44,108 bases of DNA, taken from the UHGV virus genome UHGV-0106768; one strand, written 5' to 3'. Shown here in pieces: positions 2,131 to 28,561 of the stretch (the first letter of the stretch is position 1; every line of letters begins with the position of its first letter). The notes beneath the pieces were generated by a model that did no database searches, had not been told where the DNA came from, and saw only the letters and a list, made by a program, of their open reading frames with translations. The position numbers and the translations under genes were made by a program. The stretch is from a virus.

Positions 2131-2674
2131 GAAACAGTTTAGAAATAGAATATTTATAAAATATCCATTTAATTTAGATGATGTGAACAAGTGCAGATTA
2201 TATATCAAAGTTGAGATAAGCATAGTGCATAAAAAACAGCCCCCATTTTTTATGTATGTAAAAGAGAATTCGGATATGTTATGATATAGACACAGTCAAG
2301 GACAGGCACCGCCGCCCATGACTGGAAACAACCTCTATATGCCGGATGCATACGGCAGAGGACGGTCATATGAGAGCAGAACTGAACACCACAGGTATAT
2401 CCCGTGTTCGGAATCTGACATCATATGGCTACTCTGTGTCATGCATCCGGCTATTTTTCTGCCGCGGCATTCGGAGCATGGCAAATCGATCATTACATTT
2501 GTTAGTCAGGGCGCGCACTGGCGGACAGATGCTCATAACGGAAAACAATGCCTGTGGTCTGTATAGACCGGAACAGGTACCGAAAGATTTTCCGTGTGGA
2601 CATTGTCTGCCTGCGTGCCTTTTCGCAGTAAGAGCATCTGCCGCTGAGTGCGTTCCTTGCAGAAAGGAACGATT

Positions 2675-3397
2675 ATGGAAAACGTGAATGTTCAGAATGC
2701 TGCCGCTATTACCGATCAGACCACACTCGGAGAACTGCTTGCAATGCTTGACCTCGCTGATAAGGCAGGCAAGATGCCGACACCGAGAGAACTGTTTGAG
2801 ACCGCCGGTGAGACGATTGCCGACATGAACGGCTGCACGCTCTTCAGCAACGGGTTCGCTGTCTACCAGAATATCACCGGACGTACTGTTGTCTGGCTGC
2901 CTTACTGTAAGAGCTTCACCTATTACTTCGGCAAGCTCCGTGATTCCGAGAAAGACACGCTGACAGAGACCTATGAGCTGCCGGATGGATTTCTGGAAAC
3001 ACAGCCGTGGGTGATCGCAGTAACACTGATCGGCGACCATCGTGTGGAGGCAAACAGCATGAACCGCACCGGCAGCCGCAAGGATACCACAGATTATGAC
3101 AGCGCCGATAACGGCGATAAAGACGGTGATGCAGAGGAGGCTTTGGCAGATCCGTATCGCAGGGCATTCAACTGGTATGACGGACGCATGGGCGAGAATC
3201 CGCAGGATGCCGTGGAGCGCAGAGAGACACGCGAGGAGATGCTTGCAGACATGACGGACAAGCAGCGTGAAGCCTTTATTATGTACTTCAGGGATGGTAT
3301 GACGCAGGAAGAGATTGCTTCATATATAGGGGTAAGCCGTGATTCCATAAATGACAGGCTTGAAGGTGCATTGAAAAAAGCAAAAAAATATTTTTGA
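2675..3397 (+). CDS. sigma-70 region-4-like HTH protein (putative phage transcription factor)
   Basis: ATG 2675 with AAAGGA RBS (ORF track starts at in-frame GTG 2648); C-terminus (REAFIMYFRDGMTQEEIASYIGVSRDSINDRLEGALKKA) resembles sigma region 4; no region 2 recognised. Confidence 0.5.
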   Translation: MENVNVQNAAAITDQTTLGELLAMLDLADKAGKMPTPRELFETAGETIADMNGCTLFSNGFAVYQNITGRTVVWLPYCKSFTYYFGKLRDSEKDTLTETYELPDGFLETQPWVIAVTLIGDHRVEANSMNRTGSRKDTTDYDSADNGDKDGDAEEALADPYRRAFNWYDGRMGENPQDAVERRETREEMLADMTDKQREAFIMYFRDGMTQEEIASYIGVSRDSINDRLEGALKKAKKYF

Positions 3398-3442
3398 GGA
3401 TACCCACAAAAAGACCTCTCCCATGACAGTATATGAGAGGGC
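3398..3442. repeat. conserved ~45-bp element, copy 1 (GGATACCCACAAAA...hairpin)
   Basis: Near-identical to 17237..17280; CCTCTC/GAGAGG stem; lies immediately 3' of a stop codon after a T-run. Confidence 0.6.
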
Positions 3443-3529
3443 TTGAAAAGAAACCAAACCGCAAGCGGCTGCAAAGCCCTCGCAGCCGAACCATTATTAC
3501 ATCGGTCGAAAGACCTGAACAGAAAGGAA

Positions 3530-3895
3530 ATGCTTATGCCTATGGAAAACAGAGTCCCGAAAAACCGCTACAACGGCGGTGCCGCGCCCAATGCTGACAA
3601 ACAGGACAAGCCCGATGTGCTGAAGATGATCGAAACGGCAATGGACAAGCGTGCGGCTGGCATAGCACAGACGGTCACGGATATGTTCCGTTTCATGTCG
3701 ATGGCATCCGCCATGCTCCCGAATATGGAGATGGATGTCGGTGTGTTCCGTCTGAAGATCGACGATGACGGCGTGTTCTTTGAAATCCGCTACCCGTCCG
3801 GCTTCAGGCGCAAGCACAAGCCCGATGAGGACGGCGAAAAGCTGCCGGACAACTATGACGATAACGAGGAGGGACTGATCTATGACGGAGACTGA
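3530..3895 (+). CDS. hypothetical protein
   Basis: ORF with AGAAAGGAAA RBS; alternative in-frame ATG at 3536; no recognisable motif. Confidence 0.5.
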   Translation: MLMPMENRVPKNRYNGGAAPNADKQDKPDVLKMIETAMDKRAAGIAQTVTDMFRFMSMASAMLPNMEMDVGVFRLKIDDDGVFFEIRYPSGFRRKHKPDEDGEKLPDNYDDNEEGLIYDGD

Positions 3896-4376
3896 GAAGA
3901 AGTTCACTGTGCCGGGACCGGTGCCTGTGGACGCAAAGAAGCTGATCGATGGGCTTGGTACGATCTTCGGCGGCGTGATCCAGATTCTGGCGGCAATGGA
4001 GCCGGGCATGGCAAAGGAACTGGCAGACATGGCGTTGGGCGGTGTGCCGAAGGAGCAGGTGCCGGAGACCATTAATCCGGACGATTTCGAGGAGATCATC
4101 GCTGCTGACGATCTGCCGTGGGATACAGAGCCGGAGCAGCCTGAACCGCCCAAGCCTGCGGAAAAATCCAAGCCGAAGAAGGCAGCAAAGAAGGCGGAGC
4201 CTGCATCGGAGCTGACCGCCGACGATCTCATCCGTGTGGTGACGCAGAAGATCAAGAAGGACCGCACCAACAAGGACAAAGTGCTGGCACTGCTGAAGTC
4301 CTACGGTGCGGCAAAGGTCAGCGACATTCCGCAGGAAAAGTATGAGGCGTTCCTCACGGATGTGTCGCAGCTCTGA
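3882..4376 (+). CDS. hypothetical protein (Pro/Lys/Glu-rich centre)
   Basis: 164-aa ORF overlapping the upstream stop by 14 nt; GAGGAGGG RBS. Confidence 0.55.
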   Translation: MTETEKKFTVPGPVPVDAKKLIDGLGTIFGGVIQILAAMEPGMAKELADMALGGVPKEQVPETINPDDFEEIIAADDLPWDTEPEQPEPPKPAEKSKPKKAAKKAEPASELTADDLIRVVTQKIKKDRTNKDKVLALLKSYGAAKVSDIPQEKYEAFLTDVSQL

Positions 4377-4390
4377 TCGGGGGTGGCATC

Positions 4391-5638
4391 ATGCCTGACG
4401 TTCACGCACTGCTCAGTGCGTCCAGTTCAAAACAGTGGCTACACTGTCCGCCGTCAGTCCGTTTGCAGGAGGGATTTCCGAATGAGAGTTCAGTCTACGC
4501 CGCAGAGGGCACGTTTGCCCACGAGATCTGCGAATACAAGGTACGTAAGTACCTGAAGGAGCGTGTGAAGCGTCCGCAGTCCGAGGAATATGACACCGAG
4601 GAAATCGAGCAGATCACAGATGTGTATGCGGAGTTCGTGATCTCCATCATTGAGCAGATGAAGGAGAACGGCTGTGAGCCGCTTGCTTTTGTTGAGGAGC
4701 GTGTGGACTACAGCCACATTGCCCCTTCCGGCTTTGGCACGGCAGATATGCTCATCATCGGTAAGGACGAGCAGGGACGCGGAATCCTTCATGTATGCGA
4801 TTTCAAGACGGGTGCAGGCGTGTTTGTGGATGCAGACCACAACAGCCAGATGATGCTCTATGCGATCGGAGCTTTAGCCGCCTACGGCTTTTTGTATGAT
4901 TTTGAGATCGTGCGTATGAGCATCATTCAGCCTCGTCTGGATAATATCAGCACATTCGAGTGTAGCAGAGCCGAGCTTGAGGAATGGGGCGAGAGCATCA
5001 AGCCCATTGCGAAACTTGCCTACGAGGGCAAAGGTGAACAGCACCCCGGCGACTGGTGTCGGTTCTGCCGTGCAAAGCCTGTTTGCAAAGCGTGTGCCAA
5101 TGAAGCACTGGCACTCTGCCGTGAGGATTTCCTTGACCTCGATGCCGGAGCATTCGATGATACTGCGGAGGAAAGCGATATGACCGCACCATACGAAGCG
5201 GATATACAGACTGCCGTATTCAAGCAGCCGTGACTGATTCCTATCAGCGAACTTGCGGAGATCCTGCCGACTCTGAACCGCATCAGCTCTTGGATCGAGG
5301 CGGTATTCGCATTCGTATCCTCCGAGGCGATCAATCACGGTGTACCGATTCCCGGCTATAAGGTGGTCGAAGGGCGCAGCAAGCGTGTATTCACAGATAC
5401 AAAAGCTGTGGTCGATACCGCTGTTCAGAACGGGTACACCGACCTTTACAAGCAGACGCTCATCACGCTGACGGAATTTGAAAAGATGATGGGCAAGAAA
5501 AAGTTCAACGAGCTGCTCGGTGAGTATGTCGCCAAGCCACCCGGAAAGCTGGCACTTGTGCCGGAGAGCGATCCGAGAGAACCCGTTGATCTCACAACAC
5601 CCGGTCAGGAATTTGAAGTTCTCTCTGATGATGAGTGA
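4391..5638 (+). CDS. DUF2800-like PD-(D/E)XK nuclease (Cas4/RecB-like), interrupted by in-frame TGA at 5231-5233
   Basis: N-terminal MPDVHALLSASSSKQWLHCPPS and C-terminal Cys cluster CRFCRAKPVCKAC are as expected for DUF2800; same-frame continuation through the stop reads as protein (ISELAEILPTLNRISSWIEAV...GYKVVEGRSKRVF); downstream part has no RBS or ATG. Confidence 0.7.
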
Positions 5639-5711
5639 GGATCATACAATAATGCCGCAATTATTCTGTTTGGTGAATACGCAAAATTGAATGAAATATA
5701 GGAGGTATACT

Positions 5712-6287
5712 ATGGCAAACACAACACCCGCGACTAAAGTGGTTATTCCCTGTCGCATTTCTTTTGCGAACATCTGGGAGCCAAAATCAATTAATGGCAG
5801 CGAAGAGAAGTATTCCGTTTCCCTACTGATCCCGAAGGATGACAAGGCAACGCTCGCCAAGATCAAGAAGGCAATTGAGGCGGCAAAGGAAGCGGCGAAG
5901 GAGAAGAAGTGGGGCGGCAAGATCCCGCCGAACCTCAAGCTGCCGATGCATGACGGCGACATCGACCGTCCTGATGACGAGAACTATGCCGGTCACTTCT
6001 TCTTCAATGCCACGAGCAAGGATGCACCGCAGATCGTTGACCGCCATGTGCAGCCGATTCTCGATCCGATGGAGTGCGGCAGCGGTGACTATTGCAATGT
6101 CAGCGTGAACTTCTACGGTTTTGCAGCATCCGGCAACAAGGGCATCGCAGCAGGACTCCAGAACATCCAGCTTGTCCGCCACGGTGAGCGTCTTGCCGGC
6201 AGGCCGACCGCCGCATCCGACTTCGTTGAGGTCGAGGGTGATGATGCGGATGATCTCGCAGACGATGATCTGGATTTCCTGAACTGA
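5712..6287 (+). CDS. DUF2815-like ssDNA-binding protein
   Basis: ATG 5712 with GGAGG RBS 6 nt upstream; sits in the DUF2800 - DUF2815 - PolA arrangement typical of this replication module. Confidence 0.65.
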   Translation: MANTTPATKVVIPCRISFANIWEPKSINGSEEKYSVSLLIPKDDKATLAKIKKAIEAAKEAAKEKKWGGKIPPNLKLPMHDGDIDRPDDENYAGHFFFNATSKDAPQIVDRHVQPILDPMECGSGDYCNVSVNFYGFAASGNKGIAAGLQNIQLVRHGERLAGRPTAASDFVEVEGDDADDLADDDLDFLN

Positions 6288-6327
6288 CGCATAAGGGAGG
6301 CTTGCCTCCCTGTACATACACAAACAG

Positions 6328-9213
6328 GTGGTGATTTTATTGAGCAGACGTGTACTTTCTATCGACCTTGAGACCTACAGCGATGTTGACCTTCCGAACT
6401 GCGGTGTGTACCGCTATGTTGAGGGGGATTTTCATATCCTGCTGTTCGCATATGCATTCGATGATGAAGAAACAAAGTGTATCGACATGGCCTGCGGTGA
6501 ACAGCTTCCCGCAGAGGTTGTGGATGCCATACACAATGAAAATATCATCAAATCTGCGTGGAATGCGCAGTTTGAGCGCATCTGTCTGTCAAAATATCTC
6601 GGCATCAGGCTTTCTCCGGACTCGTGGCAATGCACGATGGTATGGGCGGCATCGCTGTCCCTGCCGCTGAAGCTGGCAACGGCAGCACAGGCTTTGAAAA
6701 CTGCACAGCAGAAAGACAGTGTCGGTGAACGGCTGATCCGCTACTTTTCGATTCCGTGTAAGCCTACCAAATCTAACGGCGGTCGCACACGCAATCTGCC
6801 GGAACACGCTCCGGAGGACTGGGCGCTGTTCAAAAGCTACTGTATTCAGGATGTGGAAACGGAACGGGATATCCGCCGAAGACTTGAAAAGTTTCCGCTG
6901 ATGCCGCAGGAATGGGATTTTTATCACATGGATCAGCGGATCAATGACCGCGGCATCCTGATCGACAGAGAGCTTGTGCAGCAGGCAATTATCTGTAATA
7001 TGGCAATGTCTGAGGAGATGACCAAACGCGCCTATGCACTGACGGGACTTGAAAATCCCAATTCTGTATCTCAGCTGAAGTCATGGCTGGAAGATCGCGG
7101 CATCGAGGTGGATTCCCTCGGCAAAAAGAATGTCGCTTCTCTGATCACAGACCTTGACAAGCACAGTGCGGACGGTGAAGCTCTGGATATGATGAAGCTG
7201 CGGTTGCAGATGGCAAAGTCCTCTGTGAAAAAGTATCAGGCGGCAGAGAGATACATCTGTCAGGACGGCAGGGCGCACGGACTGTTTCAGTTTTCCGGAG
7301 CTCAGCGAACACAGCGCTGGTGTCTTACCGGCGATCATGAAATACTGACAGATAAAGGCTGGCTCAGGCTTGATAATTGGCAGGGCGGTAAGATTGCTTG
7401 TTGGAATCCTAATCAGGAAATGGTCTCGTTCCAGAAAGCGAACGTATTGTGCTTTGAATATGACGGTCCTATCTACCGCTATGAGGACAAACGGATCGAT
7501 CAGATCAGCACGCCGGATCACAAAATGCGTGTAAAGAAACGGTATAACGGCGAGTGGACGGATGACACTGTTGGCAATATGGAAAAGTATCGTCCTTCTA
7601 TTCCGTTTACCGGACGCAGACAAACGATGCCCGGCTTGGAGCACGCAGAACTGAGGGTACTGGTGATGACGCAGGCTGACGGCAGCTATAAAGAAGATGG
7701 AATGCTCTGCTTCCATTTCAAGAAGAAAAGGAAAATAGAACGGTGCAAACATCTGCTCAGACAGGCGGGCATTTATTTCACAGTGAATGAATGCAGGACA
7801 GATGGAACAACGCAGATCAAGATTCCTTCCCGTGAGCAGCCGATGTATCTAAGAATGTTTCATAACAAGACATTTGGAATGTGGCTTCTCGATGAAAGCC
7901 CGGATGTTTTCTTTGATGAGCTTCGGTATTGGGACGGATCGCAAAGCGCCAAAAACAGTATCCAATATACCACAACGAACAAAGTGAATGCCGATATTGT
8001 TCAGGCTTTTGCTCATACAAGTGGTCGCTGTGCAAAAATGAAACCGGTCATCCGGGATAAAGAACACCCGAATTGGAGCGATGCATACTATCTCGATATA
8101 TGGCTCACTCCGAAAAACTGTCATGAAATCAGAGTGAAGCCGACTATCTCGCAATTCAGCGGCAAAATATACTGTGCTGAAACCCCAACCGGATACTTCC
8201 TTGTAAGACGTAATGGTAAAGTGTGGGTAACAGGAAACAGCGGGCGCGGCATTCAATTACAGAACCTGCCGCAGAACCACATCTCTACCCTCGATGAAGC
8301 AAGAGAACTTGTCAAAATGGGCTGCTTTGACATGATCGAAGCACTGTACGGCAATACGCCGGATATCCTGTCACAGCTTATCCGCACGATGCTCATTCCG
8401 AAGGACGGCTGTGAATTTATCGTGGCAGACTTCTCCGCCATTGAAGCGAGAGTACTTGCGTGGCTTGCCGGAGAACAGTGGCGGCTCGATGCCTTCAAGC
8501 GTGGCGAGGATATTTACTGTGCATCCGCATCGCAAATGTTCGGTGTTCCGGTCGTGAAGCACGGCATCAACGGTGAACTGCGGCAGAAAGGCAAGGTCGC
8601 AGAATTGGCCTGCGGTTACGGCGGCGGTGCCGGTGCGCTGATCTCAATGGGCGCACTGGATATGGGACTGAAAGAGGACGAACTTCCCGACATCATTTCA
8701 AGCTGGCGCGACGCAAACCCGGAGATCGTGAAATTCTGGTATGCTGTGGAAAAAGCCGCGATTGAAACAGTCAAGGATCACAATGACAGATCGGTCGGCC
8801 GGATCGGATTTCAGTTTTCAGCAAATACACTGTGGATCGTTCTTCCGTCCGGACGCAGGCTTGCCTACATCAAACCGAGATTACAGCCGAACCGCTTCGG
8901 GCGTATGGCACTGACATTTGAGGGGCTTGGTGCAAACAACAAGTGGGTGCGCGGCGAAACCTATTCCGGCAAGCTGACAGAGAACATCACACAGGCAACT
9001 GCCCGTGATCTCCTTGCAGAAGCAATGCGCCGTATAGAACTTGCAGGGCTTGGAATCGTCGGGCATGTGCATGATGAGGTCATTCTCGAAGTGCCGAAAG
9101 GACAATACACGGTCGATGATGTATGCAGCATCATGAATCAGAATCCGAAATGGGCGGAGGACTTACCGTTGTCAAGTGCAGGATATACGGGTGCATGGTA
9201 CTACAAAGATTAA
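6328..9213 (+). CDS. family A DNA polymerase with 3'-5' exonuclease domain, intein-containing
   Basis: Exo I motif SIDLETYS; pol motif A IVADFSAIEAR, motif B RQKGKVAELACGYGGG, motif C VHDEVI; NLQNLP-like motif; start ambiguous (GTG 6328 or TTG 6340). Confidence 0.85.
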   Translation: MVILLSRRVLSIDLETYSDVDLPNCGVYRYVEGDFHILLFAYAFDDEETKCIDMACGEQLPAEVVDAIHNENIIKSAWNAQFERICLSKYLGIRLSPDSWQCTMVWAASLSLPLKLATAAQALKTAQQKDSVGERLIRYFSIPCKPTKSNGGRTRNLPEHAPEDWALFKSYCIQDVETERDIRRRLEKFPLMPQEWDFYHMDQRINDRGILIDRELVQQAIICNMAMSEEMTKRAYALTGLENPNSVSQLKSWLEDRGIEVDSLGKKNVASLITDLDKHSADGEALDMMKLRLQMAKSSVKKYQAAERYICQDGRAHGLFQFSGAQRTQRWCLTGDHEILTDKGWLRLDNWQGGKIACWNPNQEMVSFQKANVLCFEYDGPIYRYEDKRIDQISTPDHKMRVKKRYNGEWTDDTVGNMEKYRPSIPFTGRRQTMPGLEHAELRVLVMTQADGSYKEDGMLCFHFKKKRKIERCKHLLRQAGIYFTVNECRTDGTTQIKIPSREQPMYLRMFHNKTFGMWLLDESPDVFFDELRYWDGSQSAKNSIQYTTTNKVNADIVQAFAHTSGRCAKMKPVIRDKEHPNWSDAYYLDIWLTPKNCHEIRVKPTISQFSGKIYCAETPTGYFLVRRNGKVWVTGNSGRGIQLQNLPQNHISTLDEARELVKMGCFDMIEALYGNTPDILSQLIRTMLIPKDGCEFIVADFSAIEARVLAWLAGEQWRLDAFKRGEDIYCASASQMFGVPVVKHGINGELRQKGKVAELACGYGGGAGALISMGALDMGLKEDELPDIISSWRDANPEIVKFWYAVEKAAIETVKDHNDRSVGRIGFQFSANTLWIVLPSGRRLAYIKPRLQPNRFGRMALTFEGLGANNKWVRGETYSGKLTENITQATARDLLAEAMRRIELAGLGIVGHVHDEVILEVPKGQYTVDDVCSIMNQNPKWAEDLPLSSAGYTGAWYYKD
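7321..8238 (+). mobile_element. intein (306 aa) with LAGLIDADG homing-endonuclease domain inside the PolA gene
   Basis: Begins CLTGDHEILTDKGW (block A), TPDH block B, two LAGLIDADG-like motifs (VMTQADGSY, LRYWDGS), ends ...VWVTGN followed by Ser; removing it joins RTQRW to SGRGIQLQNLP, restoring the conserved TGR-S/NLQN region. Confidence 0.7.
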
Positions 9214-9247
9214 GTGTATAAACAATATTTCAGAGGAGGATATCTTT

Positions 9248-10297
9248 ATGAAACAAGGCAGATCATTACCGGAAGTGCTGACTGAGCTTCAGCGTCAGAA
9301 TGCGGCAAAGCAGGACTACATCGGTGCAGCGGAGGCTTTCCGTCTGGACGAGGACGGCAGCACATTCAATATTGGCACCGACCACAGCTTCGGCACCACG
9401 CAGCTTTTTCATCGTCAGGTGGCATCGGCGCTTGGCATTCCGGCGAAATACTACGATATGATGCAGAAACAGAAGCCCGATCTTCTGGCAGACAATGTGA
9501 ATGCATGGTTCAGTGACAAGGGCAGCAGCTACATGGTGCGTACCCTTGATTACGGCAGCGGACAGGTTGCGAGAGCCTTTCTGTCTGACCGTTACCGCCG
9601 TATCGATAACCTTGAAATTGCCTCGGCTGTTCTCCCGATTTTCGCCGGACAGGAAGGCATGGAGGTCATGAGCTGCGAGGTCACAGAGAATAAGCTGTAT
9701 CTGAAGATCGTCAATCACCGTCTGGAAATGGCGTGTGTCGGTGACCGTGTGCAGGCAGGTGTCATCATCTCCAATTCGGAGGTTGGACTCGGTGCTGTGT
9801 CTGTTCAGCCGCTTGTCTATACACTTGCCTGCACCAACGGCATGGTGGTCAACAGTATGGGCGAACGCCGTACCCATGTGGGCAGAGCTGCGAAGGCGCT
9901 GGAAGACAGCTTCAATATCTACACAGATGAAACCCTCGAAGCCGAAGATAAGGCATTCATGCTGAAGCTCCGTGATACCACAATGGCAGCAATTGAAGAG
10001 GCTCGTTTCGCACAGATCATCGGTGTGTTGGAGCAGAGCCACGGCGCAAAGATCACAGGACGTGTGCAGGATGTCATCGAACTGACCGGCAAGGCGTATG
10101 ACCTGAATCAGCCGGAACAGGACAGCATTCTGAACTATCTCATCAAGGGCGGCGATCTTTCCCTCTATGGTCTGAGCAATGCCATCACACGCGCTTCGCA
10201 GGATGTAGATTCCTACGACAGAGCCACTGCGTTAGAGGGCATCGGCTGGCAGGTGGCGACCATGCCTGCAAATCAGTGGAAGGAGATCAACGCATGA
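9248..10297 (+). CDS. DUF932-like phage/plasmid protein (tentative)
   Basis: ATG 9248 with GAGGAGGA RBS; 349 aa; family assignment from memory of motif pattern only. Confidence 0.45.
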   Translation: MKQGRSLPEVLTELQRQNAAKQDYIGAAEAFRLDEDGSTFNIGTDHSFGTTQLFHRQVASALGIPAKYYDMMQKQKPDLLADNVNAWFSDKGSSYMVRTLDYGSGQVARAFLSDRYRRIDNLEIASAVLPIFAGQEGMEVMSCEVTENKLYLKIVNHRLEMACVGDRVQAGVIISNSEVGLGAVSVQPLVYTLACTNGMVVNSMGERRTHVGRAAKALEDSFNIYTDETLEAEDKAFMLKLRDTTMAAIEEARFAQIIGVLEQSHGAKITGRVQDVIELTGKAYDLNQPEQDSILNYLIKGGDLSLYGLSNAITRASQDVDSYDRATALEGIGWQVATMPANQWKEINA

Positions 10298-10527
10298 GCA
10301 GAACCTGGAAAGACAGAAAAGGATATAAAACACGCAGAAAACGACACGGATATCCTGTGCCGGAAATCTGCAATTACACACGCGGCAGCTATGAAGATTA
10401 TGACCACAGCGATGAGGAACTGTATGTCGATGACCAGTGCTGCGAGAACTGCCGCTTTTGCGGATGTTGCCGTCATACACCGTTCCCGTCGGGCTGGTGC
10501 GAATACTGGAAGGACGGCACACATTGA
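10294..10527 (+). CDS. small Cys-rich hypothetical protein
   Basis: ATG overlaps the upstream stop (ATGA); GGAAGGAG RBS; CCENCRFCGCC cluster. Confidence 0.5.
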   Translation: MSRTWKDRKGYKTRRKRHGYPVPEICNYTRGSYEDYDHSDEELYVDDQCCENCRFCGCCRHTPFPSGWCEYWKDGTH

Positions 10528-10964
10528 GAGAATATGTTGTCGAAAACGAGTTTATCAAGGCGGTAAAAGCGGCAGGCGGTGTGGCATACAAGCTGACATC
10601 GCAGACCGCAAACGGACTGCCGGACAGACTCGTTCTGTTCCCGGCGGCAAAGACGATTTTCGTGGAGCTGAAAGCACCGGGGAAAATGATGCGACCGTTG
10701 CAGCGTAAAAGACGGTATCAGCTTATGAAACTCGGCTTTCCGGTGCTGTGCATTGACAGGATGCCGCAGATCAAGCCGTTCATATCAGCAGCATTGTCAT
10801 GGACACCCGGTGAGCCGTTCCCGGAAGGCATCGGTGCGAAGATACCCGATCTGGAAAGGGCAACGCTGCCGACGGATATGGATAACTTCGGGGAAACGCT
10901 TGAACCCATCGATCCAGACAATCTGATAGAGTTTTATGAAATAGAGGACGGTGATGATGCATGA
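10524..10964 (+). CDS. VRR-NUC domain nuclease
   Basis: GLPDRLVLFP...FVELKAPG...LQRKRRYQ pattern; probable TTG start at 10524 (ORF track gives overlapping ATG 10437). Confidence 0.6.
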   Translation: MREYVVENEFIKAVKAAGGVAYKLTSQTANGLPDRLVLFPAAKTIFVELKAPGKMMRPLQRKRRYQLMKLGFPVLCIDRMPQIKPFISAALSWTPGEPFPEGIGAKIPDLERATLPTDMDNFGETLEPIDPDNLIEFYEIEDGDDA

Positions 10965-11458
10965 TTAACCCTAAACGCAGAGCTGTGAGAAAAAGCTGCT
11001 CATACTGCGGAACTGTCTTTACCTATGTCGGAAGTCATGGTACAAGAAATAAGCATTTTTTCTGTTCTCATGAATGCTATATTGCCTTTAAGACAAAGAA
11101 AGCAGAAGTGAAATGCGATTGGTGCGGCAAATCAATGCTGAAAAAACGCTCTGAAATATGGAGAACGGATCACAATTTCTGCTGCCCCGAATGCTGTTTA
11201 CTGTATAGGCAAAAGCAAGGCGAAACTTCATGGAATCATCGTGTGAATGGAATAACCGTACACAGGGGCATTTTGGAGAAGAAGCTCGGACGAGAACTGC
11301 GTGCGGATGAAGAAGTACACCATATCGATGGTAACCATTTCAATAATGATCCGGACAATCTCATCGCCCTTTCCAAATCGGAACACGCCAAAATTCATTC
11401 TTCTTGGAAAGCGAGGGACGAGTATGGAAAATACGTTAAAACGCAGTCAGATTCATGA
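10961..11458 (+). CDS. HNH endonuclease (free-standing, homing-endonuclease-like)
   Basis: Cys-rich N-terminus plus HNH motif EVHHIDGNHFNNDPDNLIALSKSEHAKIH; overlaps both neighbours. Confidence 0.75.
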   Translation: MINPKRRAVRKSCSYCGTVFTYVGSHGTRNKHFFCSHECYIAFKTKKAEVKCDWCGKSMLKKRSEIWRTDHNFCCPECCLLYRQKQGETSWNHRVNGITVHRGILEKKLGRELRADEEVHHIDGNHFNNDPDNLIALSKSEHAKIHSSWKARDEYGKYVKTQSDS

Positions 11459-12806
11459 ATACCAAAAATACTGTGTTGACTTTATTAAGTCTCATCCCGT
11501 ATCAGCACTCTTTTTGGATTGCGGACTTGGAAAGACGATCATTTCATTGACTGCAATATATGATCTAATGTTTGATGAGCTGAAGGTATTTAAAGTTCTT
11601 GTAATTGCCCCTCTAAGAGTGACAAATGTCTGGAAAGCGGAGGTTCAGAAATGGAGTCATCTGCAAGATGTTGATGTTGCGATAGTAGTCGGAACTGTAA
11701 AACAGCGGATTGCTGCGATTAACAGTAACGCTCTTGTTTACGCTGTCAACCGTGAAAATGTGAAGTGGCTCGTAGAGTATTACGAGAAAAACGGTCTTCG
11801 TTGGGATTTTGACATGATTGTCATTGACGAGCTGAGTTCCTTCAAAAACTACCAGTCACAGCGGTTCAAATGGTTGCGTAAGGTTCGGCCTTTCGTGAAG
11901 CGCTGGGTAGGCTTGACAGGTACGCCGACTTCCAACGGACTCATGGACTTATGGGCAGAGATCGGTATCCTTGACGGCGGTGAGAGGCTTGGACGATTTA
12001 TCGGGCGTTTCCGAGAGTCTTACTTCAAGCCTGCATCCATGAACCCAAGTACGGGTGTGGTGTTCTCATATACACCCCGTCCCGGTGCGGAGGAACAGAT
12101 ATATCAGAAGATCTCCGACATCACCATTTCTATGAAAGCACTGGACTATCTGGATATGCCTGAATGCGTGTATGTCAATCATGAGGTCGAGATGAATGCA
12201 GCGGAGCGAAAGCTCTACGATCAGTTGAAGCACGACCTCATTATCCCGCTTGAGGACGGCGACATTGATGCCGCCAACGCTGCATCGCTTTCCAATAAAC
12301 TGCTCCAGATGGCGAACGGCGCGGTCTATGATGAGAACAAGGAAACACGCACCATTCACAGCCGCAAGCTGGAGATGCTGGAAGACCTGATCGAATCGGC
12401 AAACGGACAACCTGTGCTGATCGGTTACTGGTTCAAGCATGACCGCACCCGAATTATAGAGCATCTGACCGCTTGTGGTTATGCTCCGAGGGATATTAAG
12501 GATTCCGACGATATCACTGACTGGAACGCCGGAAAGATCAGTGTTGCTCTGATACATCCGGCTTCGGCAGGACACGGACTGAATATCCAGTCCGGCGGTC
12601 ATATCCTGATCTGGTTTGGCCTGACATGGAGTCTGGAGCTGTATCAGCAGACCAATGCAAGACTCTGGCGGCAGGGGCAGCAGCACACTGTTACTATCCA
12701 TCACATCGTAACAAAAGACACAGTAGATGAAGATGTCCTGAAAGCTCTCGCTTCAAAGGACGTGACGCAGGAGAAGCTGATCGCAGCAGTCAAGGCAAGA
12801 TTGTAA
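11424..12806 (+). CDS. SNF2-family helicase
   Basis: Walker A-like LDCGLGKT, DEAD-like IVIDELSSFKN, motif III LTGTPTSNG, C-terminal helicase motifs; ATG 11424 with RBS. Confidence 0.8.
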   Translation: MENTLKRSQIHEYQKYCVDFIKSHPVSALFLDCGLGKTIISLTAIYDLMFDELKVFKVLVIAPLRVTNVWKAEVQKWSHLQDVDVAIVVGTVKQRIAAINSNALVYAVNRENVKWLVEYYEKNGLRWDFDMIVIDELSSFKNYQSQRFKWLRKVRPFVKRWVGLTGTPTSNGLMDLWAEIGILDGGERLGRFIGRFRESYFKPASMNPSTGVVFSYTPRPGAEEQIYQKISDITISMKALDYLDMPECVYVNHEVEMNAAERKLYDQLKHDLIIPLEDGDIDAANAASLSNKLLQMANGAVYDENKETRTIHSRKLEMLEDLIESANGQPVLIGYWFKHDRTRIIEHLTACGYAPRDIKDSDDITDWNAGKISVALIHPASAGHGLNIQSGGHILIWFGLTWSLELYQQTNARLWRQGQQHTVTIHHIVTKDTVDEDVLKALASKDVTQEKLIAAVKARL

Positions 12807-12902
12807 CAATATACAGTCTGTATGATCCACCCCTTATTGACGACAGGAAGACGGCAAAGCGGCGACAATTCGGTTACGCCGCAAACCACGGAGGTGAAAA
12901 CT

Positions 12903-13388
12903 ATGGCTCGTAAGAACAAACGCCTAAAAACAGAATACCACAGAGGGCTCGGCTTTGATCCGAGAAAATATATTACGGCACCGGTGCAGCACCACACCAT
13001 CGCTCACAAGCCGCAGCGCGGTGACATCTGGTTTGCGGATCTTGGCTGTCATCCGGATTCCAGCGTGCAGAGCGGCATCCGTCCGGTTATCATTCTCTCG
13101 AATGATATGGGCAATGCACACGCCGACACGGTCAATATCATTCCCATGACGCGGCATCTGAAAAAGCCGGAGCTGCCGTGCCATACGCATCTGTTCCCCG
13201 ACAGTATTTCCGATCTTCATCAGCATCTATATCCGTCCATGATCCTGGCGGAGCAGCTCACGACTGTCAGCAAGCATGCGCTTCGCAGCTATGCCGGACA
13301 TATCTCGGACGCCGATGCGATGAACCGTATTGAAACCGCTGTCATTGCACAGCTTTTCATTGAAAGGAGACATTCCGAATGCCTGTAA
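12903..13388 (+). CDS. MazF/PemK-like endoribonuclease-fold protein with ~38-aa basic N-terminal extension
   Basis: RGDIWFADLG...GIRPVIILSND...VNIIPMT pattern; GGAGGTGA RBS 5 nt upstream of ATG 12903. Confidence 0.65.
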   Translation: MARKNKRLKTEYHRGLGFDPRKYITAPVQHHTIAHKPQRGDIWFADLGCHPDSSVQSGIRPVIILSNDMGNAHADTVNIIPMTRHLKKPELPCHTHLFPDSISDLHQHLYPSMILAEQLTTVSKHALRSYAGHISDADAMNRIETAVIAQLFIERRHSECL

Positions 13389-15808
13389 ATTTCGTAAATA
13401 TCCCGGACGCACTGAAGCAGTCGGCATCCTTCTGTGTCTGGAAGCTGGAAAAGAGATCCGGACGCCCCACAAAAGTGCCGTACAATCCGAGAACCGGCAA
13501 CATGGCAAAAACCAACGAGCCGGACACCTTCACCGACTTCAAGACCGCTATGAAAGCGTATGCGATTGGCGGCTGGAACGGCATCGGCTACAGAGTTTCC
13601 GAGGGAATCGGTGCAATCGACATCGACCACTGTATCCGGGAGGACGGCAGCCTGAATGATGTGGCAGCATCCATTCTCGGTATCTTCAGCACTGCCTACT
13701 TTGAACGCTCTCCATCCGGCACCGGACTGCGCGGCTTCTTCAAACTCAGCCCTGAGTTTGCCTACGATAAGACTGTGTACTACATCAACAACCGCAAACA
13801 CGGTCTGGAGGTCTATCTGCCCGGAACGACCAACCGCTTTGTAACTGTTACGGGAGATATGTTCCGTCCCGGTACCGTTGAGCGTGATGATGATGCACTC
13901 CGCAATCTGCTTGACACCTTCATGAAGCGCAGCACCCGTGTATCAAATAAGACGATCGAGCCTGCATCCTATCTTGATGACGAGGGTGTCATCGCACACG
14001 CATTCGCCTCTGCTTCTGGTGATAAATTCAAAGCACTCTACGAGGGACACTGGGAGGAAGGCTATGATTCGCAGTCTGATGCAGACATGGCGTTCGTGTC
14101 CATGCTGTGCTTCTGGTGCGGCAATGTGGAGGAGCAGATCGACCGTATCTTCCGAACTTCCGGTCTGATGCGTGATAAGTGGGATCGTATGACCGGTGAC
14201 AGGACCTACGGTCAGATCACGATCCGCAATGCCATCGCATCGACATCCGAGATCTATACACCTATTGCGGACTCCTCCGCAGAGGATGATTTTGAAGATA
14301 TTGAGGGCGAGACAGATACAGAGCAGCTGATGTTTGAGCCGGATTTCACCCACATCACCCTGACGCTGGAACAGATGCAGCCGCACACAAATCCTCGCTA
14401 TCAGCGTGACGAGATCGGTATTGGCTATGCATTTGCGGATTACTATAAGCCAATCGCTCATTTCGACCGTGAGCGCGGTATCTGGTATGTCTTTGACGGG
14501 AAGGTGTGGCAGCCGGACGAAAATGCTCTCGCTGTGGCGGAGATTGCAAAGCGTCTGGCAGACAGGCTGTATACCTTCGCCCTTCAGATCAAGGATGAGG
14601 ATACTCGAAACAGGTATATCAAGCGTGTACAGAAGCTCCAACTCCGCAAAAACCGCCGCACCATGATCGAAGATGCGAAATCCGTGTATCCAGTGCCGCA
14701 CGCTATCTTTGACCGCAATACCGATCTGTTCAACAGTCAGAACGGCACGCTGAACCTCACCACAGGTGAATTCCGTCCGCACGATCCGGCAGACTTTCTC
14801 ACCATGATGTCCGGTGTCACCTATGATCCGAATGCCACCTGTCCGAGATGGGAGCAGTTCATTTCCGAAGTTATGTGTAACGATGCTGACCTCGCATTAT
14901 ACTTGCAAAAAGCCCTCGGATATGCGCTTACCGGCGACACATCGCTCGAATGCCTGTTCATCCTCTACGGTGCGACCTCCCGAAACGGAAAAGGCACCAC
15001 AATGGAGACATTTCTGAAGATCATGGGTGATTACGGCAAAACCTCCAATCCGGAGATGCTGTCTACAAAATTCGGCAACACCAATGCGTCCGGACCGTCT
15101 GAGGAGATTGCTCGCCTTGCGGGTGTGCGTTTCGTTAATATCTCCGAGCCGGAGAAGAAGATCACCTTCAATGCAGCACTGGTAAAGCGTATGACGGGTA
15201 ACGATACACTGAATGCTCGTTTTCTGCATGAGAACAGCTTCGATTTCAAGCCGAATTTCAAGATCTTCATCAATACGAATTACAAACCGTCCGTTTCTGA
15301 TATGACACTGTTTTACTCCAACCGTCTGAAGCTCATTCCGTTCAAACGCCATTTTGAGGAGCATGAGCAGGACAAAGGTCTGAAAGCATTTTTCAGTACG
15401 GATGTCTGCCTCTCTGCCATCTTTAACTGGTGCTATGAAGGATATAAGCGGTTTCGTTCCGAAGGTCTGGAGGATCCGGCTGCTGTTTCTCAGGCAACCA
15501 AGGAGTATCAGGAGGAGTCTGACCGCATCGGTCAGTTTGTGGATGCATGGCTCGAAGAAGGCGAAGCATTTGAAGTTCGTACCTCTGCGGCATATAAGCT
15601 GTACGGTGAATGGTGCGATAAGTATGGCTACCGCAAGGAGAACAGCACCAACTTCAATAATGCGATTCAGCGTTTCTTCCCCATCGTGCGTAAGCGTCCG
15701 AACGATACAAAGGGTGCGCAGAAAACAACAATGCTTGTGGGGTGCCGTTTCCTGGATCATGAAAACGGCGAAGCTGACGAACCGGATGAGTTTGCTGCCT
15801 TGGAGTAA
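13379..15808 (+). CDS. DNA primase/helicase (prim-pol-like N-terminal domain plus P4/D5-type helicase)
   Basis: 809 aa; Walker A GATSRNGKGT; N-terminal bifunctional primase-polymerase-like region; AAGGAGA RBS. Confidence 0.8.
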   Translation: MPVNFVNIPDALKQSASFCVWKLEKRSGRPTKVPYNPRTGNMAKTNEPDTFTDFKTAMKAYAIGGWNGIGYRVSEGIGAIDIDHCIREDGSLNDVAASILGIFSTAYFERSPSGTGLRGFFKLSPEFAYDKTVYYINNRKHGLEVYLPGTTNRFVTVTGDMFRPGTVERDDDALRNLLDTFMKRSTRVSNKTIEPASYLDDEGVIAHAFASASGDKFKALYEGHWEEGYDSQSDADMAFVSMLCFWCGNVEEQIDRIFRTSGLMRDKWDRMTGDRTYGQITIRNAIASTSEIYTPIADSSAEDDFEDIEGETDTEQLMFEPDFTHITLTLEQMQPHTNPRYQRDEIGIGYAFADYYKPIAHFDRERGIWYVFDGKVWQPDENALAVAEIAKRLADRLYTFALQIKDEDTRNRYIKRVQKLQLRKNRRTMIEDAKSVYPVPHAIFDRNTDLFNSQNGTLNLTTGEFRPHDPADFLTMMSGVTYDPNATCPRWEQFISEVMCNDADLALYLQKALGYALTGDTSLECLFILYGATSRNGKGTTMETFLKIMGDYGKTSNPEMLSTKFGNTNASGPSEEIARLAGVRFVNISEPEKKITFNAALVKRMTGNDTLNARFLHENSFDFKPNFKIFINTNYKPSVSDMTLFYSNRLKLIPFKRHFEEHEQDKGLKAFFSTDVCLSAIFNWCYEGYKRFRSEGLEDPAAVSQATKEYQEESDRIGQFVDAWLEEGEAFEVRTSAAYKLYGEWCDKYGYRKENSTNFNNAIQRFFPIVRKRPNDTKGAQKTTMLVGCRFLDHENGEADEPDEFAALE

Positions 15809-15846
15809 AAGTAGACTTTTCTCCGTATTTGCGCTGTTTTCCGCAG

Positions 15847-15936
15847 TTGGGGCAACGTGGGGCAAGTTTTTTCGGTGGTTATTATTATTACTTCTCTTTA
15901 TATATATTACTATTTTTACTTGCCCCTACTTGCCCC
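15847..15936. repeat. putative replication origin: two GGGGCAA repeats, AT-rich spacer, two inverted TTGCCCC repeats
   Basis: GGGGCAAG at 15859-15866 is the exact reverse complement of CTTGCCCC at 15919-15926 and 15929-15936; ~50 bp of >85% AT between; further CCTTGCC/GGCAAGG inverted pair at 16021-16076. Confidence 0.5.
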
Positions 15937-16114
15937 AAATAAATAAAAACAATAGAAAAGATAAGAAGAATAGAGGATTTTCACTGATTTGAACCATTAC
16001 CCATTTTGCACTGTTTTGAACCTTGCCCGATGCTGTCACTGACAAAGAGTGTGTAAGCGACAAAGCGTGGCAAGGTCAAAATCCAACGATCAATCATGCA
16101 GGAGGAACAAGAAT

Positions 16115-17209
16115 ATGAGAATCATCACTTCAGAACAGGTATCCGCAGGACACCCCGACAAGATCTGTGACCAGATCGCAGATGCTATCGTGACCGACTG
16201 CCTGCAGCATGACCACAACAGCCGTGTCGCCATCGAGTGCCTTTTCAAGAACCGCTTCCTTGTGATCGCCGGTGAACTGACCAGCACCCATGAGCCCGAC
16301 TACAAGGCACTGGTGCAGAGCGTGTTTGACCGCATCAACAACGGCGGAGCAGAGAGTACCGATGCAGGTTTTGATTACAAGCTGGATTTCACAGCCGATG
16401 ATCTGGACATTGCGATTCTGGTCGATCACCAGAGTAGCGACATTGCCCTCGGTGTGAATACCGGCGGTGCAGGAGATCAGGGTATGATGTACGGCTATGC
16501 GACCAACGAAACGCCGGAGATGCTCCCGATCCCCTTCGTGCTGGCTACCAGATTTCTGGAACTGCTGAAAGCCTACCCCTGCCGTATGCTGAAAGCCGAC
16601 GCAAAGGCACAGGTCAGCTATGACTATGACAGCGGTCGCATTACCACCTTCCTCTGCTCGGTGCAGCATACACACGATGTGGATGTTGAGGACTTCAAGC
16701 CCATCATCGAAAAGCTGATGGTGAGAACGGCAACCGAATACGGGCTGAATACAGACTTTGCAAAGCTCGTCAACCCGACCGGCAGATTTGTCATAGGCAG
16801 TTCCTTTGCGGACTGCGGCGTTACCGGACGCAAGCTCGCCTGCGATACCTATGGCGGTATCGGGCATATCGGCGGCGGTGCAATGTCCGGCAAAGATCCG
16901 TCTAAGGTTGACCGCAGCGGCGCATATGCAGCAAGAAAAATCGCAAGGGATATCGTCAGTGCCGGATATGCGGATATGGCAGAGGTGCAGATCGCATATG
17001 CCATCGGCGTGGCAGAACCCGTATCCGTGTATGTGGAAACCTTCGGCACGGAGCATCAGGATACGGAGTTCATCAGCCAGTATGTCCGTGAGAACTACGA
17101 CCTGACACCGAGAGGTATCATTGAAGGACTGCATTTGCTGGATGTGGACTACAACGCTGTTTCCGCATACGGACACTTCGGAAAACAGAACCTTCCGTGG
17201 GAACTATAA
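16115..17209 (+). CDS. metK: S-adenosylmethionine synthetase (MetK)
   Basis: SEQVSAGHPDKICDQIADAI N-terminus, GAGDQGMMYGYA and GGGAMSGKDPSKVDRSGAYAARKIA motifs; CAGGAGGA RBS. Confidence 0.85.
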   Translation: MRIITSEQVSAGHPDKICDQIADAIVTDCLQHDHNSRVAIECLFKNRFLVIAGELTSTHEPDYKALVQSVFDRINNGGAESTDAGFDYKLDFTADDLDIAILVDHQSSDIALGVNTGGAGDQGMMYGYATNETPEMLPIPFVLATRFLELLKAYPCRMLKADAKAQVSYDYDSGRITTFLCSVQHTHDVDVEDFKPIIEKLMVRTATEYGLNTDFAKLVNPTGRFVIGSSFADCGVTGRKLACDTYGGIGHIGGGAMSGKDPSKVDRSGAYAARKIARDIVSAGYADMAEVQIAYAIGVAEPVSVYVETFGTEHQDTEFISQYVRENYDLTPRGIIEGLHLLDVDYNAVSAYGHFGKQNLPWEL

Positions 17210-17236
17210 TAAATTTTTTGAAATTTTTTTTTGATT

Positions 17237-17280
17237 GGATACCCACAAAATGCCCTCTCCCACGACAGTATATGAGGGGC
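17237..17280. repeat. conserved ~45-bp element, copy 2
   Basis: GGATACCCACAAAATGCCCTCTCCCACGACAGTATATGAGGGGC; matches 3398..3442 with stem-preserving differences. Confidence 0.6.
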
Positions 17281-17360
17281 GTTGCTCAGACCGAACAACA
17301 CATCATTTGCGGGGCTGACCGTCCCTCACCAAATATCAACACAGGAAGGAGGCAGAGACA

Positions 17361-17720
17361 ATGCCGAGCAGACCAAAGACACCATGCCGTCACCCCGGCT
17401 GTGCGGCGCTCGTACCCTACGGTGCGAAGTACTGCGGCAAGCACCGTTCTCTCCATCCGGAGGATACACGCTCCGCAGGCAGTCGAGGCTATGGCACCGC
17501 ATGGAACAAGGCCCGCAAGCGTTACCTTGAGACGCATCCGCTGTGTGTGGAGTGCATGAAGCAAGGACGCTACGTCAAGGCGACCGATGTGGATCACATC
17601 ATGCCGCACCGAGGAGACAATGTTCTCTTCTGGGATCAGAGCAACTGGCAGAGCCTCTGCCACCGACACCACAGCATCAAAACCAGAAACGAGGATCACA
17701 CCCCTGAGTACAAGTACTGA
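17361..17720 (+). CDS. HNH endonuclease
   Basis: CxxC...CxxC plus VDHIMPH...N.Q.LCH..H..K motif; AGGAAGGAGG RBS. Confidence 0.8.
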   Translation: MPSRPKTPCRHPGCAALVPYGAKYCGKHRSLHPEDTRSAGSRGYGTAWNKARKRYLETHPLCVECMKQGRYVKATDVDHIMPHRGDNVLFWDQSNWQSLCHRHHSIKTRNEDHTPEYKY

Positions 17721-26848: not shown

Positions 26849-26925
26849 GCTGTTCTGTATGGGCTTTCCGTGATATGCACAATCTCAGGGGCGTAAAAGC
26901 CCCGTACACTCTACGATTTACAGTC

Positions 26926-26954
26926 TTGATATATCCGCCGTAATGGCGTAATAT
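26926..26954 (+). promoter_or_regulatory. sigma-70-type promoter P1 (TTGATA-17-TAATAT)
   Basis: Consensus-like hexamers with 17-bp spacer ~55 nt upstream of ATG 27011. Confidence 0.6.
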
Positions 26955-27010
26955 GTGACTACCGCAAGGGAAAACCGAGCGGAATCAAAAACGAAACGGA
27001 GGATTCACAT

Positions 27011-28132
27011 ATGAAAACTTATGCAATGATCATTGGAAACCGCAAGGAACTCACAAAGAGAATCGAGGCACTCACCGGAGAGCGCAGCGTATACACCTTC
27101 ATGCCGAGATGCGCCTATGAGATCGGGGCATTCGCAGTCGAGAAGGACGGCACACTTACGGCACAGGACGATGCCGACCAGAGCGTGATCGACACCCTGA
27201 GAGCCGAGGGTATGATCGGTGGTGAGATCATCGCAGAGAGCATCAAGGCAGTCGAGCCGGAGCAGACCGATGAGACCGCAGAGCCGGAACAGCCTGCACC
27301 GCCCGTAAGCACCGATGAATGGGACGATGATGAGGATGACGACGATGAGAACAGCGTCGAGGGCGAGAATGCGGAAGCGGAAGAGCCGGAGGAGTCCGAA
27401 GAAAATGCCGATAAGTCGGAGCCTTCCGCAGAGCCAGAAGCCGCACCTCCTGCGACCGAGGATGCCTGGGATGATGAACCGGAGGATGAACCCGGCGACG
27501 AGCCGGAAGAAACCACCGAGCTTCCTGAACCGCTGACCGCAGAGATCAGCTTCCCGCTGAGCCATCACACGGTGCAGAGCCTTACAAACCTCATCTGCAT
27601 GATCCACTCCCGCGGCGCACTTCTCAGCAAGGCAACCGGCGGACAGTTTTACGCTGACAAGAGCCTCGCCGATGCGATCCTCGATGACAAGACCTTCCGC
27701 AGCATTCACGAGCTGATCGCCTACATCAGAGAATGGGAGGAGACGAATCCTGAACTGAAGGGCATCCGCTTCGCCGATGACAAGCTAATCTTTGACGGCT
27801 TCGGTGCAGCGCAGGATGCCGAAACGGTGCAGACCTTCACCAAGCTCGCCACAGCCATGAACAGGATGGCGATCACGCAGAAACGTGTGCAGGCAAAGGA
27901 TGTCGATGACAGCAACGAAAAGTACGCACTCCGCATCTGGCTGATCCGCCTTGGGCTGAACGGCGCAGACTGCAAGGTTGACCGCAAGCGCCTCATGGCT
28001 CCGCTTTCCGGACACACCGCATTCCGCAACGATGCGGAGCGTGTGCGCTGGGAGGCAAAGCAAAAGGCAAAGCGTGATGCTGCCAGAACCGAACTGACCG
28101 AGGAGGATGAAAACGATGCAGTTTCCGAATGA
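27011..28132 (+). CDS. acidic protein with amidoligase-like C-terminal module
   Basis: 373 aa; long D/E-rich tract (DEWDDDEDDDDENSVEGENAEAEEPEESEEN...); C-terminal ~70 aa align with the C-terminus of the 28562 amidoligase. Confidence 0.6.
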   Translation: MKTYAMIIGNRKELTKRIEALTGERSVYTFMPRCAYEIGAFAVEKDGTLTAQDDADQSVIDTLRAEGMIGGEIIAESIKAVEPEQTDETAEPEQPAPPVSTDEWDDDEDDDDENSVEGENAEAEEPEESEENADKSEPSAEPEAAPPATEDAWDDEPEDEPGDEPEETTELPEPLTAEISFPLSHHTVQSLTNLICMIHSRGALLSKATGGQFYADKSLADAILDDKTFRSIHELIAYIREWEETNPELKGIRFADDKLIFDGFGAAQDAETVQTFTKLATAMNRMAITQKRVQAKDVDDSNEKYALRIWLIRLGLNGADCKVDRKRLMAPLSGHTAFRNDAERVRWEAKQKAKRDAARTELTEEDENDAVSE

Positions 28133-28364: not shown

Positions 28365-28477
28365 GAGATCCTATTCCATTGTATCCGAGTATACCATAGA
28401 ATTTCAAGTATATCAAGTGTACACATACACCAGATATGAGCAATGTATTTTCCTCGATATTCTGTGGTTTTAGCGGC

Positions 28478-28506: not shown

Positions 28507-28561
28507 GTGACACAACGGAAGGGCAAACGCCCACCGAAAAACCGAATCGGAGGATACCAAA

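Follow-up and report, generated by a model that had tools for sequence, protein, structure and literature searches.

The virus genome UHGV-0106768, a Ruminococcus/Oscillospiraceae siphophage-type genome, carries two copies of a conserved DNA element, the first directly after the gene of a sigma-like protein (hereafter the factor) and the second after metK. The whole stretch of 44,108 nucleotides that was analysed is referred to as the window. All its long open reading frames (ORFs) lie on the + strand, as do the features described below unless stated otherwise. The element was numbered so that index 1 corresponds to position 3398 in copy 1 and to position 17237 in copy 2. The pattern GGATACCCACAAAA-N3-CCTCTCCCA-N-GACAGTATATGAG was found at 3398-3437 and 17237-17276 without mismatches (40 specified positions identical), and none of 100 dinucleotide-preserving shuffles of the window contained any match. 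The original prediction, made from the letters of the window, had placed the copies at 3398-3442 and 17237-17280, each after a T-rich run and without a following U-tract. It was borne out on these points: both copies are present, both are preceded by an A/T-rich run and neither is followed by a U-tract. A search of the window for further copies gave no third match to the pattern, even with up to three mismatches, and no extra copies above chance were obtained when the element halves were searched separately or with the 11-mer TACCCACAAAA.

Copy 1 lies between the factor gene (2675..3397, 240 aa, ATG at 2675 with the Shine-Dalgarno (SD) sequence AGAAAGGAA upstream) and the replication module that it heads (3536..17209: DUF2800 nuclease, Enc34-type single-stranded DNA-binding protein, PolA with an intein-like insert, HNH, SNF2 helicase, MazF-like protein, D5 primase-helicase and MetK). 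The parts of this region are arranged as follows: the recognition-helix codons of the factor (VSRDSINDRLEGA, 3338..3376), which are hypervariable among lineages and co-vary with the block of the candidate promoter; phased A-tracts and a T-tract (3374..3393), which are UP-element-like and double as the KKAKKYF codons of the factor C-terminus; the specificity block GATACCCACAAAA (3399..3411, index 2-14), proposed as the site for the sigma-4 helix-turn-helix (HTH) of the factor; and the invariant core CTCCCATGACAGTATATGAGAGG (3418..3440, index 21-43), proposed as the -10/melting/start region, with a putative start at approximately 3435-3441. A 5'-proximal stem-loop of the replication-module transcript, formed by GAGAGGGCTT with AAGCCCTC (3435..3483), was predicted from minimum free energy folds.

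Copy 2 is located between metK and the HNH, nucleotide-metabolism and packaging genes. Its upstream A/T tract (17213..17232) is non-coding, its block GATACCCACAAAA (17238..17250) has the same sequence as that of copy 1, and its core is CTCCCACGACAGTATATGAGGGG (17257..17279, putative start at approximately 17274-17280). A stem of TGAGGGGCG with CGTCCCTCA, including one G-U pair, was predicted in the 5' leader of this second operon (17273..17328). The first gene after copy 2 encodes an HNH endonuclease (17361..17720), a homologue of which sits after the "late" copy in relatives. It is followed by NrdD/NrdG, two DNA methylases and an array of accessory cassettes, and from 34945 by terS, terL, portal, ClpP protease, capsid and major tail protein genes. 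Each copy is at the head of a gene block as much as at the tail of one.

Architecture of the element in related phages

Related loci (150) were gathered via the sigma-like protein or the DNA core and yielded 89 distinct copies, from approximately 110 related contigs. The information profile was computed from 74 non-redundant copies and the stem/core alignment from 68 distinct copies. The relatives were found in genomes of Ruminococcus flavefaciens and other Oscillospiraceae and in rumen and digester metagenomes; a blastn search of 2600-3900 against 50,697 GenBank phage records gave no match. The element proved to be strongly conserved among the relatives: wherever sequence was available beyond an intact homologue of the upstream gene, the core was present there.

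The 74-89 distinct copies were aligned without gaps and share three parts at fixed spacing: A/T tracts, a 13-bp block and a 23-bp core. In the 74-copy profile, the A-tracts are phased at index -23 to -18 and -14 to -9, and the T-tract occupies index -7 to -4. At the early copy these tracts are coding (KKAKK(F/Y)F codons at the factor C-terminus) and at the late copy they are non-coding, so that an A/T-rich, UP-element-like stretch spans index -23 to -4 in both contexts; it probably acts like an UP element. The block (index 2-14) is semi-conserved and consists of GATAC, a variable stretch and AAAA. The core (index 21-43, CTCCCACGACAGTATATGAGRGG) has 10 invariant positions and 10 more that are conserved in at least 90% of the 68 aligned copies, the less conserved positions being G32, A41 and G43. 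Conservation drops off directly after index 43.

The genomes have two to four copies. They are always co-oriented and lie 35-150 nt 5' of one of three gene families, whatever gene lies upstream: the first gene of the replication module (MENRxPKNRYNG...), the HNH gene (MPSRPNTPCRHPGC...) or, in some phages, an MGRPSK... gene. The same architecture was found in five distant members (L151-L155, with factors 36-45% identical), in which the core has diverged to CTCCC-RYGAC-WRT, an AT-rich stretch and G..GRGG. An intrinsic terminator separates the factor gene from the element in L152, L154 and L155. Because the element sits after a terminator and before an operon in these distant relatives, it is to be read as a start signal and not as a 3'-end signal.

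In L155, three tandem copies of the element lie approximately 95 bp apart. The layout at 917-1278 of this locus is attenuator-like: the factor gene, a terminator, the three diverged elements, a 4-codon mini-ORF and a second terminator precede a DUF7768 gene. In another relative (L014, approximately 3947, minus orientation), the core and leader are intact, but the block and the end of the factor gene are replaced by unrelated sequence, a pattern that indicates a rearrangement with its breakpoint at the core's left edge.

The stems that had been proposed (CCTCTC/GAGAGG and CCCTC/GAGGG) can be formed in the window copies, but the compensatory change that they seemed to represent was not seen as covariation among the 68 distinct copies. 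The stem (index 18-23/38-43) was 87.3% paired, compared with 86.3% in column shuffles, a single stem pair was altered on both sides, and the outer pairs were unpaired in 18 and 7 of the copies. No part of the element is more invariant than the supposed 14-nt loop (index 24-37). Judged from the alignment, this pattern of conservation is that of sequence-specific DNA recognition and not that of an RNA stem. A search of the whole window with Rfam covariance models at gathering thresholds gave no matches, and no terminator-like site (a G+C-rich stem followed by a U-tract) was found on the + strand at either copy. The hairpin was rejected as a conserved RNA structure, since its pairing showed no covariation over and above that expected from conservation of the sequence. 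On the minus strand, copy 1 scored as a terminator-like hairpin followed by TTTTT (3418-3439); this candidate was also rejected, because there are no genes on the minus strand and copy 2 scored nothing, and it is probably incidental.

Pairing of the block with the recognition helix

In an alignment of factor homologues, the first ~200 residues are strongly conserved and the last HTH helix is hypervariable. About 12 helix classes were distinguished, each with one block class (60-78 distinct gene/element pairs), and the association between helix and block was not equalled in any of 5000 Mantel permutations. The pairs, given as helix with block, were as follows: SRDSxNDRLEGA with ACCCACAAA; [AS]KMSVNERLRYA with ACCCCTTACAAA; TKQSVNERLRSA with GAACCCTGACTTT; DQTTIRDHLRGA with GATACCCCTAAAACA; NHRAVGFRLEGA with GATACTACCAAAA; CRVSTVHQHMKYA with GATACCGAAAATTT; SRRTLREHLTCA with GACCCGCCATTT; TKPAVYVRLNNA with GACTTTAACTTTT; SQVGVKHHLDxA with GATAGTTAT; SQQDIYQTxxLA with CATATTGTT; SQRAVNYRLEGA with GATACTTCTAAAAC; and ARTTIMHRLEGA with GATACGGTCAAAAC.

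Helix distance was uncorrelated with the divergence of the remaining protein (rho -0.006), but it is the helix that the block follows; therefore the co-variation is not explained by phylogenetic inertia. When N-termini were at least 90% identical and the helices different, 5.5 of the 13 block positions differed. When N-termini were less than 65% identical and the helix was the same, 2.75 of the 13 positions differed and ACCCACAAA was kept. Within the 16 contigs that have at least two copies each, blocks differed by 1.3 mismatches on average, compared with 6.5 between contigs, and index 15-20 varied freely. The variable helix residues align to the -35-contacting helix of E. coli RpoE region 4.2. 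Taken together, these comparisons provide strong, though indirect, evidence that the sigma-4-like HTH of the factor binds the block on DNA.

That the block co-varies with this helix is a property at the DNA level and counts against the RNA-hairpin reading that headed the original prediction, in which the 3' ends of the sigma-like gene and metK would carry a hairpin, processing or stability site that acts in read-through transcripts. Both window copies can form short stems, the element would be transcribed from upstream in the window as no terminator precedes it there, and the conserved GAGRGG often pairs downstream, so that a processing site leaving a 5' stem-loop is conceivable. Against such a site stand the lack of stem covariation, the invariant loop, the linkage to downstream operons, the absence of an Rfam match and of a U-tract, the pairing of the block with a DNA-binding helix, and the relatives in which upstream transcription is terminated before the element. 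We regard an RNA-level site as very unlikely. The broader proposal of a functional regulatory element or binding site fared better, since the element is conserved and its block co-varies with the DNA-recognition helix; it was the RNA hairpin that fell away.

The helix and the block are also exchanged together. L006 (3639-3751) and L112 (10630-10756) are 93-95% identical for several kb on both sides of a stretch of ~115 bp over which similarity is lost. This divergent stretch comprises the last ~30 codons of the factor and the block of the adjacent element, and the 23-bp core forms its right boundary. The same ~115-bp replacement pattern was found between L005 (3640-3775) and L080. Because divergence is confined to this ~115-bp cassette, the helix and its target move as one small recombination unit. 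The second candidate promoter, ~14 kb away, carries the matching block and is kept in step with copy 1.

A candidate factor-dependent promoter

We consider it probable that each copy is a factor-dependent phage promoter that heads an operon and combines a lineage-specific recognition block with an invariant core. An ordinary host promoter does not account for either copy: a consensus scan for sigma-70-type promoters (TTGACA- and TATAAT-like hexamers 16-18 bp apart) gave none at either copy, and the best host-type candidates there were CAGTAT or TATATG without a -35. The host-type promoters that the window does contain (TTGATA-N17-TAATAT) lie elsewhere and are quite unlike the element. A reading of the element as an extracytoplasmic function (ECF) sigma promoter, with GATAC as a GGAAC-like motif and CGAC downstream, was rejected as the spacing is 20 nt and not 16-17.

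The factor matches sigma-70 region 4 only (Pfam and NCBIfam). An AlphaFold2 model made with a shallow alignment was unusable (predicted local distance difference test, pLDDT, 48), and a deeper alignment with distant family representatives gave a pLDDT of 82. In the latter model, a novel alpha/beta N-terminal domain, which covers approximately residues 10-130 and is built of one long helix and six short strands, is joined by a disordered acidic linker to a C-terminal sigma-4 HTH. The factor was aligned to RpoE by hhalign over residues 114-188 only. Fold searches listed sigma-4/HTH matches almost exclusively, with region 4 alone aligned at low root-mean-square deviation, and the best structural matches were sigma-4 domains, several of them bound to -35 DNA. 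A sigma-2 domain was not detected in the factor by Pfam (Sigma70_r2), NCBIfam, hhalign or fold search. The family of the N-terminal domain comprises 171 representative clusters. Among ten distant members that were scanned, eight have a C-terminal Sigma70_r4, one has an UPF0122-type HTH only and one has a RES domain instead; no Pfam model covered the N-terminal domain in any of the ten. Full-text literature searching for the factor family found nothing relevant, and the family appears to be uncharacterised.

With region 4 as its only recognisable sigma part, the factor does not qualify as a canonical sigma, and it may still work like one. Its C-terminal domain and the preceding linker are homologous to those of ECF (group 4) sigmas, the matching of an upstream block to the region-4.2 helix is in line with the modular -35/sigma-4 specificity of ECF sigmas, and a CGAC motif lies in the element ~8-11 nt before the putative start. 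In contrast to ECF sigmas, the factor has a beta-containing N-terminal domain instead of a detectable sigma-2, and the downstream half of the candidate promoter is a 23-bp invariant block and not a short -10 motif. The element also lies 3' of the factor gene and not in the upstream, autoregulatory position: no copy was found upstream of the factor gene in the window, where the element is not autoregulatory, and no anti-sigma gene was evident. A more specific proposal is offered tentatively, as a possibility that we consider doubtful: the factor would be a new initiation factor, with an ECF-derived sigma-4 and linker joined to an N-terminal domain that is not a sigma-2 and that reads the 23-bp invariant element (~-17 to +6) or assists in melting it. 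At least 12 orthogonal pairings of helix and block, exchanged as a ~115-bp cassette, would then make up a natural library. If true, the factor would amount to a sigma with another domain in place of its promoter-melting half.

The likeness to phage sigma-like regulators (SPO1 gp28 and gp33/34, PBSX Xpf, RinA/ArpU/LtrC) lies in a protein of the sigma-region-4 type that switches the host polymerase to phage promoters of later operons. The PBSX Xpf family PRK06930 gave a weak match over the factor HTH; among the listed NCBIfam and Pfam matches there was none to the RinA/ArpU/LtrC families, and no such regulator family reached threshold. The N-terminal domain of the factor is unrelated to these regulators, and, unlike in the RinA/ArpU/LtrC case, the factor gene lies before the replication module, with terS at 34945, 31 kb downstream. 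To our knowledge, swapping of a helix/block cassette has not been described for regulators of the SPO1, PBSX or RinA type. T4 MotA/AsiA offers another parallel, as a phage DNA-binding factor there reads a box that replaces the host -35; if transcription starts at index 38, the centre of the block would lie at about -29, against -30 for the MotA box. MotA differs in that it is not a sigma-4 HTH and requires AsiA and a normal sigma-70 -10, whereas no clear host -10 is present here and a single protein would do both jobs.

Two positions of the start were considered. Register A, with a start near index 38 (3435 and 17274), is somewhat favoured. It would place the A/T tract at -60 to -41, which is the position of an UP element. 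In short-leader copies an ATG lies 10-12 nt beyond the GAGRGG(AGG) of the core, which is its only good SD. Late leaders have 9-14-bp stems that start at index 37-38. Of 83 leaders, 73% allow four or more of the six bases of GAGRGG to pair with a CCYC further downstream, a modest enrichment over the 48% obtained when the rest of the leader was shuffled. Register B would place the start near index 43, where conservation ends; it has an AT-rich, -10-like hexamer at index 30-36 (CAGTAT/CAATAT here and TATAAA in L155), located 17-18 bp 3' of the block centre in a sigma-70-like geometry.

The proposed sequence of events is as follows. A host-type early promoter would probably make the factor (2675-3397), whose sigma-4-like HTH would dock on the block GATACCCACAAAA and recruit or redirect the host RNA polymerase. 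The polymerase, aided by the A/T tract, would open the 23-bp core and start near GAGRGG at the 3' end of the core. Copy 1 would drive the replication module, and copy 2 the HNH, nucleotide-metabolism and methylase genes and, by read-through, the packaging genes. As 5'-terminal stem-loops protect transcripts, those predicted in the two leaders may do so here. We infer activation rather than repression in this scheme, together with the position of the start and the contribution of the leader stem-loop to mRNA stability.

The early leaders (3445-3535 in the window, and in L011, L013, L057, L098 and others) share a module of their own, composed of a long GC-rich hairpin, TTACATYGG, a small GGTC-N4-GACC hairpin and the SD AGAAAGGAAA. 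In some relatives the hairpin is followed by a terminator-like TTTGTT. The module gave no Rfam match and could be a riboregulator or an attenuator.

Leaders of this kind bear on a loading site for antitermination. Lambda Q acts at PR' in this manner, and the element would correspondingly be a weak constitutive promoter with a DNA site (qut in lambda) at which the factor boards the polymerase and confers resistance to terminators. As with Q and PR', the regulator gene lies directly 5' of its candidate promoter (copy 1), and the lineage-specific pairing of factor and site resembles that of Q with its binding element. Many early leaders have a GC-rich hairpin followed by a T-rich stretch, L155 has a terminator between the tandem elements and the next gene, L155-type elements approach TTGTAA-N18-TATAAA, and one relative has a faint Phage_antitermQ match over the HTH. 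Lambda PR', however, combines a strong constitutive sigma-70 promoter with a downstream terminator, neither of which is seen at the window copies: the element lacks a usable host -35/-10 in the window and in most classes, and no terminator-like site was found in the leader of either window copy. The protein fold also differs, the fold matches being to sigma region 4 with no Q structure among the best matches listed. We regard a Q-like site as unlikely.

Helix/block co-variation and identity of blocks within a genome would be expected of DNA-binding regulators in general, and specificities are swapped in a comparable way among phage immunity systems. The block could on these grounds be an operator at which the sigma-4-like protein shuts off two host-polymerase promoters. 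The core is not a host-type promoter, however, and the protein has kept the ECF sigma-4 and linker segment, which is polymerase-docking machinery. Moreover, the HTH/ImmA-like genes located 5' of the factor gene are the more typical components of a lysogeny switch, and the element is absent from the promoter region of the factor gene itself. A repressor operator is distinctly unlikely.

The length of the core suggests one further reading, a promoter of a phage single-subunit RNA polymerase for which the sigma-4 protein would be an accessory specificity factor. The core is exactly 23 bp and would span -17 to +6 if +1 is G38, and CTCCCACGACAGTATATGAGAGG resembles the T7 (TAATACGACTCACTATAGGGAGA) and SP6 (ATTTAGGTGACACTATAGAAGAG) promoters, a likeness that we take as a lead rather than a test. 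Set against this, no RNA polymerase gene was found in the 44-kb window, in which the only Pol-A-like protein is a DNA polymerase, and the relatives are temperate-type siphophages of 33-60 kb. This was judged the least likely of the readings considered.

Several points weigh against factor-dependent promoters. The co-variation comes from metagenomic contigs among which classes have spread by recombination, so that independent events are fewer than sequences. Since the factor has no recognisable sigma-2, it may act otherwise than as a sigma, for example as an activator or as a substitute for sigma-4. Both start registers are compatible with the data, initiation itself being deduced from sequence, and the duplex energies of the core arm with the leader were only modestly better than those of shuffled leaders (mean z -1.0). 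There is no terminator between the factor gene or metK and the element in the window, so that read-through transcripts would also contain the element.

Phage-specific promoters read by phage sigma-like proteins are an already known kind of system. Distinctive features here are the presence of the sigma-4 half only in the factor, the unusually long invariant core, and the location of the protein and DNA determinants of specificity within ~115 bp, swapped together, with the block of a second promoter kept in step. The pairs form a natural data set for the rules that link helix to DNA specificity and would provide ready-made orthogonal promoter/factor pairs for Clostridia-type hosts. In a large group of Oscillospiraceae phages from rumen and gut, the element would also make it possible to annotate where operons start and the timing of their expression. 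A possible reason for diversified transcription specificity is the avoidance of cross-activation by co-resident phages or satellites.

Neighbouring genes and other observations

Upstream of the factor gene, two phrog_4031 proteins are encoded at 105-2033, the first with a sub-threshold IrrE/M78 peptidase match only and the second with weak HTH matches. A strong intrinsic terminator (2047-2076) closes this first transcription unit and is followed by an AT-rich region of ~220 bp (~2080-2300). In this region a TGnTATGAT-like extended -10 was read by eye at ~2279-2287; it is a probable early promoter for a small ORF and the factor gene.

The cassette array (26916-34574) has a near-identical ordinary promoter (TTGATA-N17-TAATAT/TAACAT/TATAGT) and the conserved leader ACAACGGAAGGGCAAACGCCCACCGAAAAAC before each accessory cassette, the last copy of promoter and leader (34513-34574) being located upstream of a small ORF that precedes terS. 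A relation of the element to the CCCACC-GAAAA leaders of this array, suggested in the original prediction, was not upheld: those leaders follow ordinary TTGATA-N17-TAATAT promoters, and block-like matches in the window occur at chance level. The array encodes amidoligase-type proteins at 27011-28132 (PHROG) and 28562-29506 (Amidoligase_2), and a GGACT/AIG2-like gamma-glutamyl cyclotransferase at 29778-30239.

Within the replication module, a PemK/MazF-like endoribonuclease toxin domain is encoded at 12822-13388 (188 aa, with an N-terminal extension), and no obvious antitoxin partner for this protein was identified. A free-standing HNH gene is located at 10961-11458. In the PolA-type DNA polymerase (6328-9213, 961 aa), a probable intein-like insert spans residues ~332-657, where the matches are to PHROGs with the annotations PhoH-like and ribonucleotide reductase. 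In the large terminase (35466-38132, 888 aa), a LAGLIDADG_3 domain at residues 303-370 separates the N-terminus from the ATPase domain and suggests that an intein or a homing endonuclease has been inserted.

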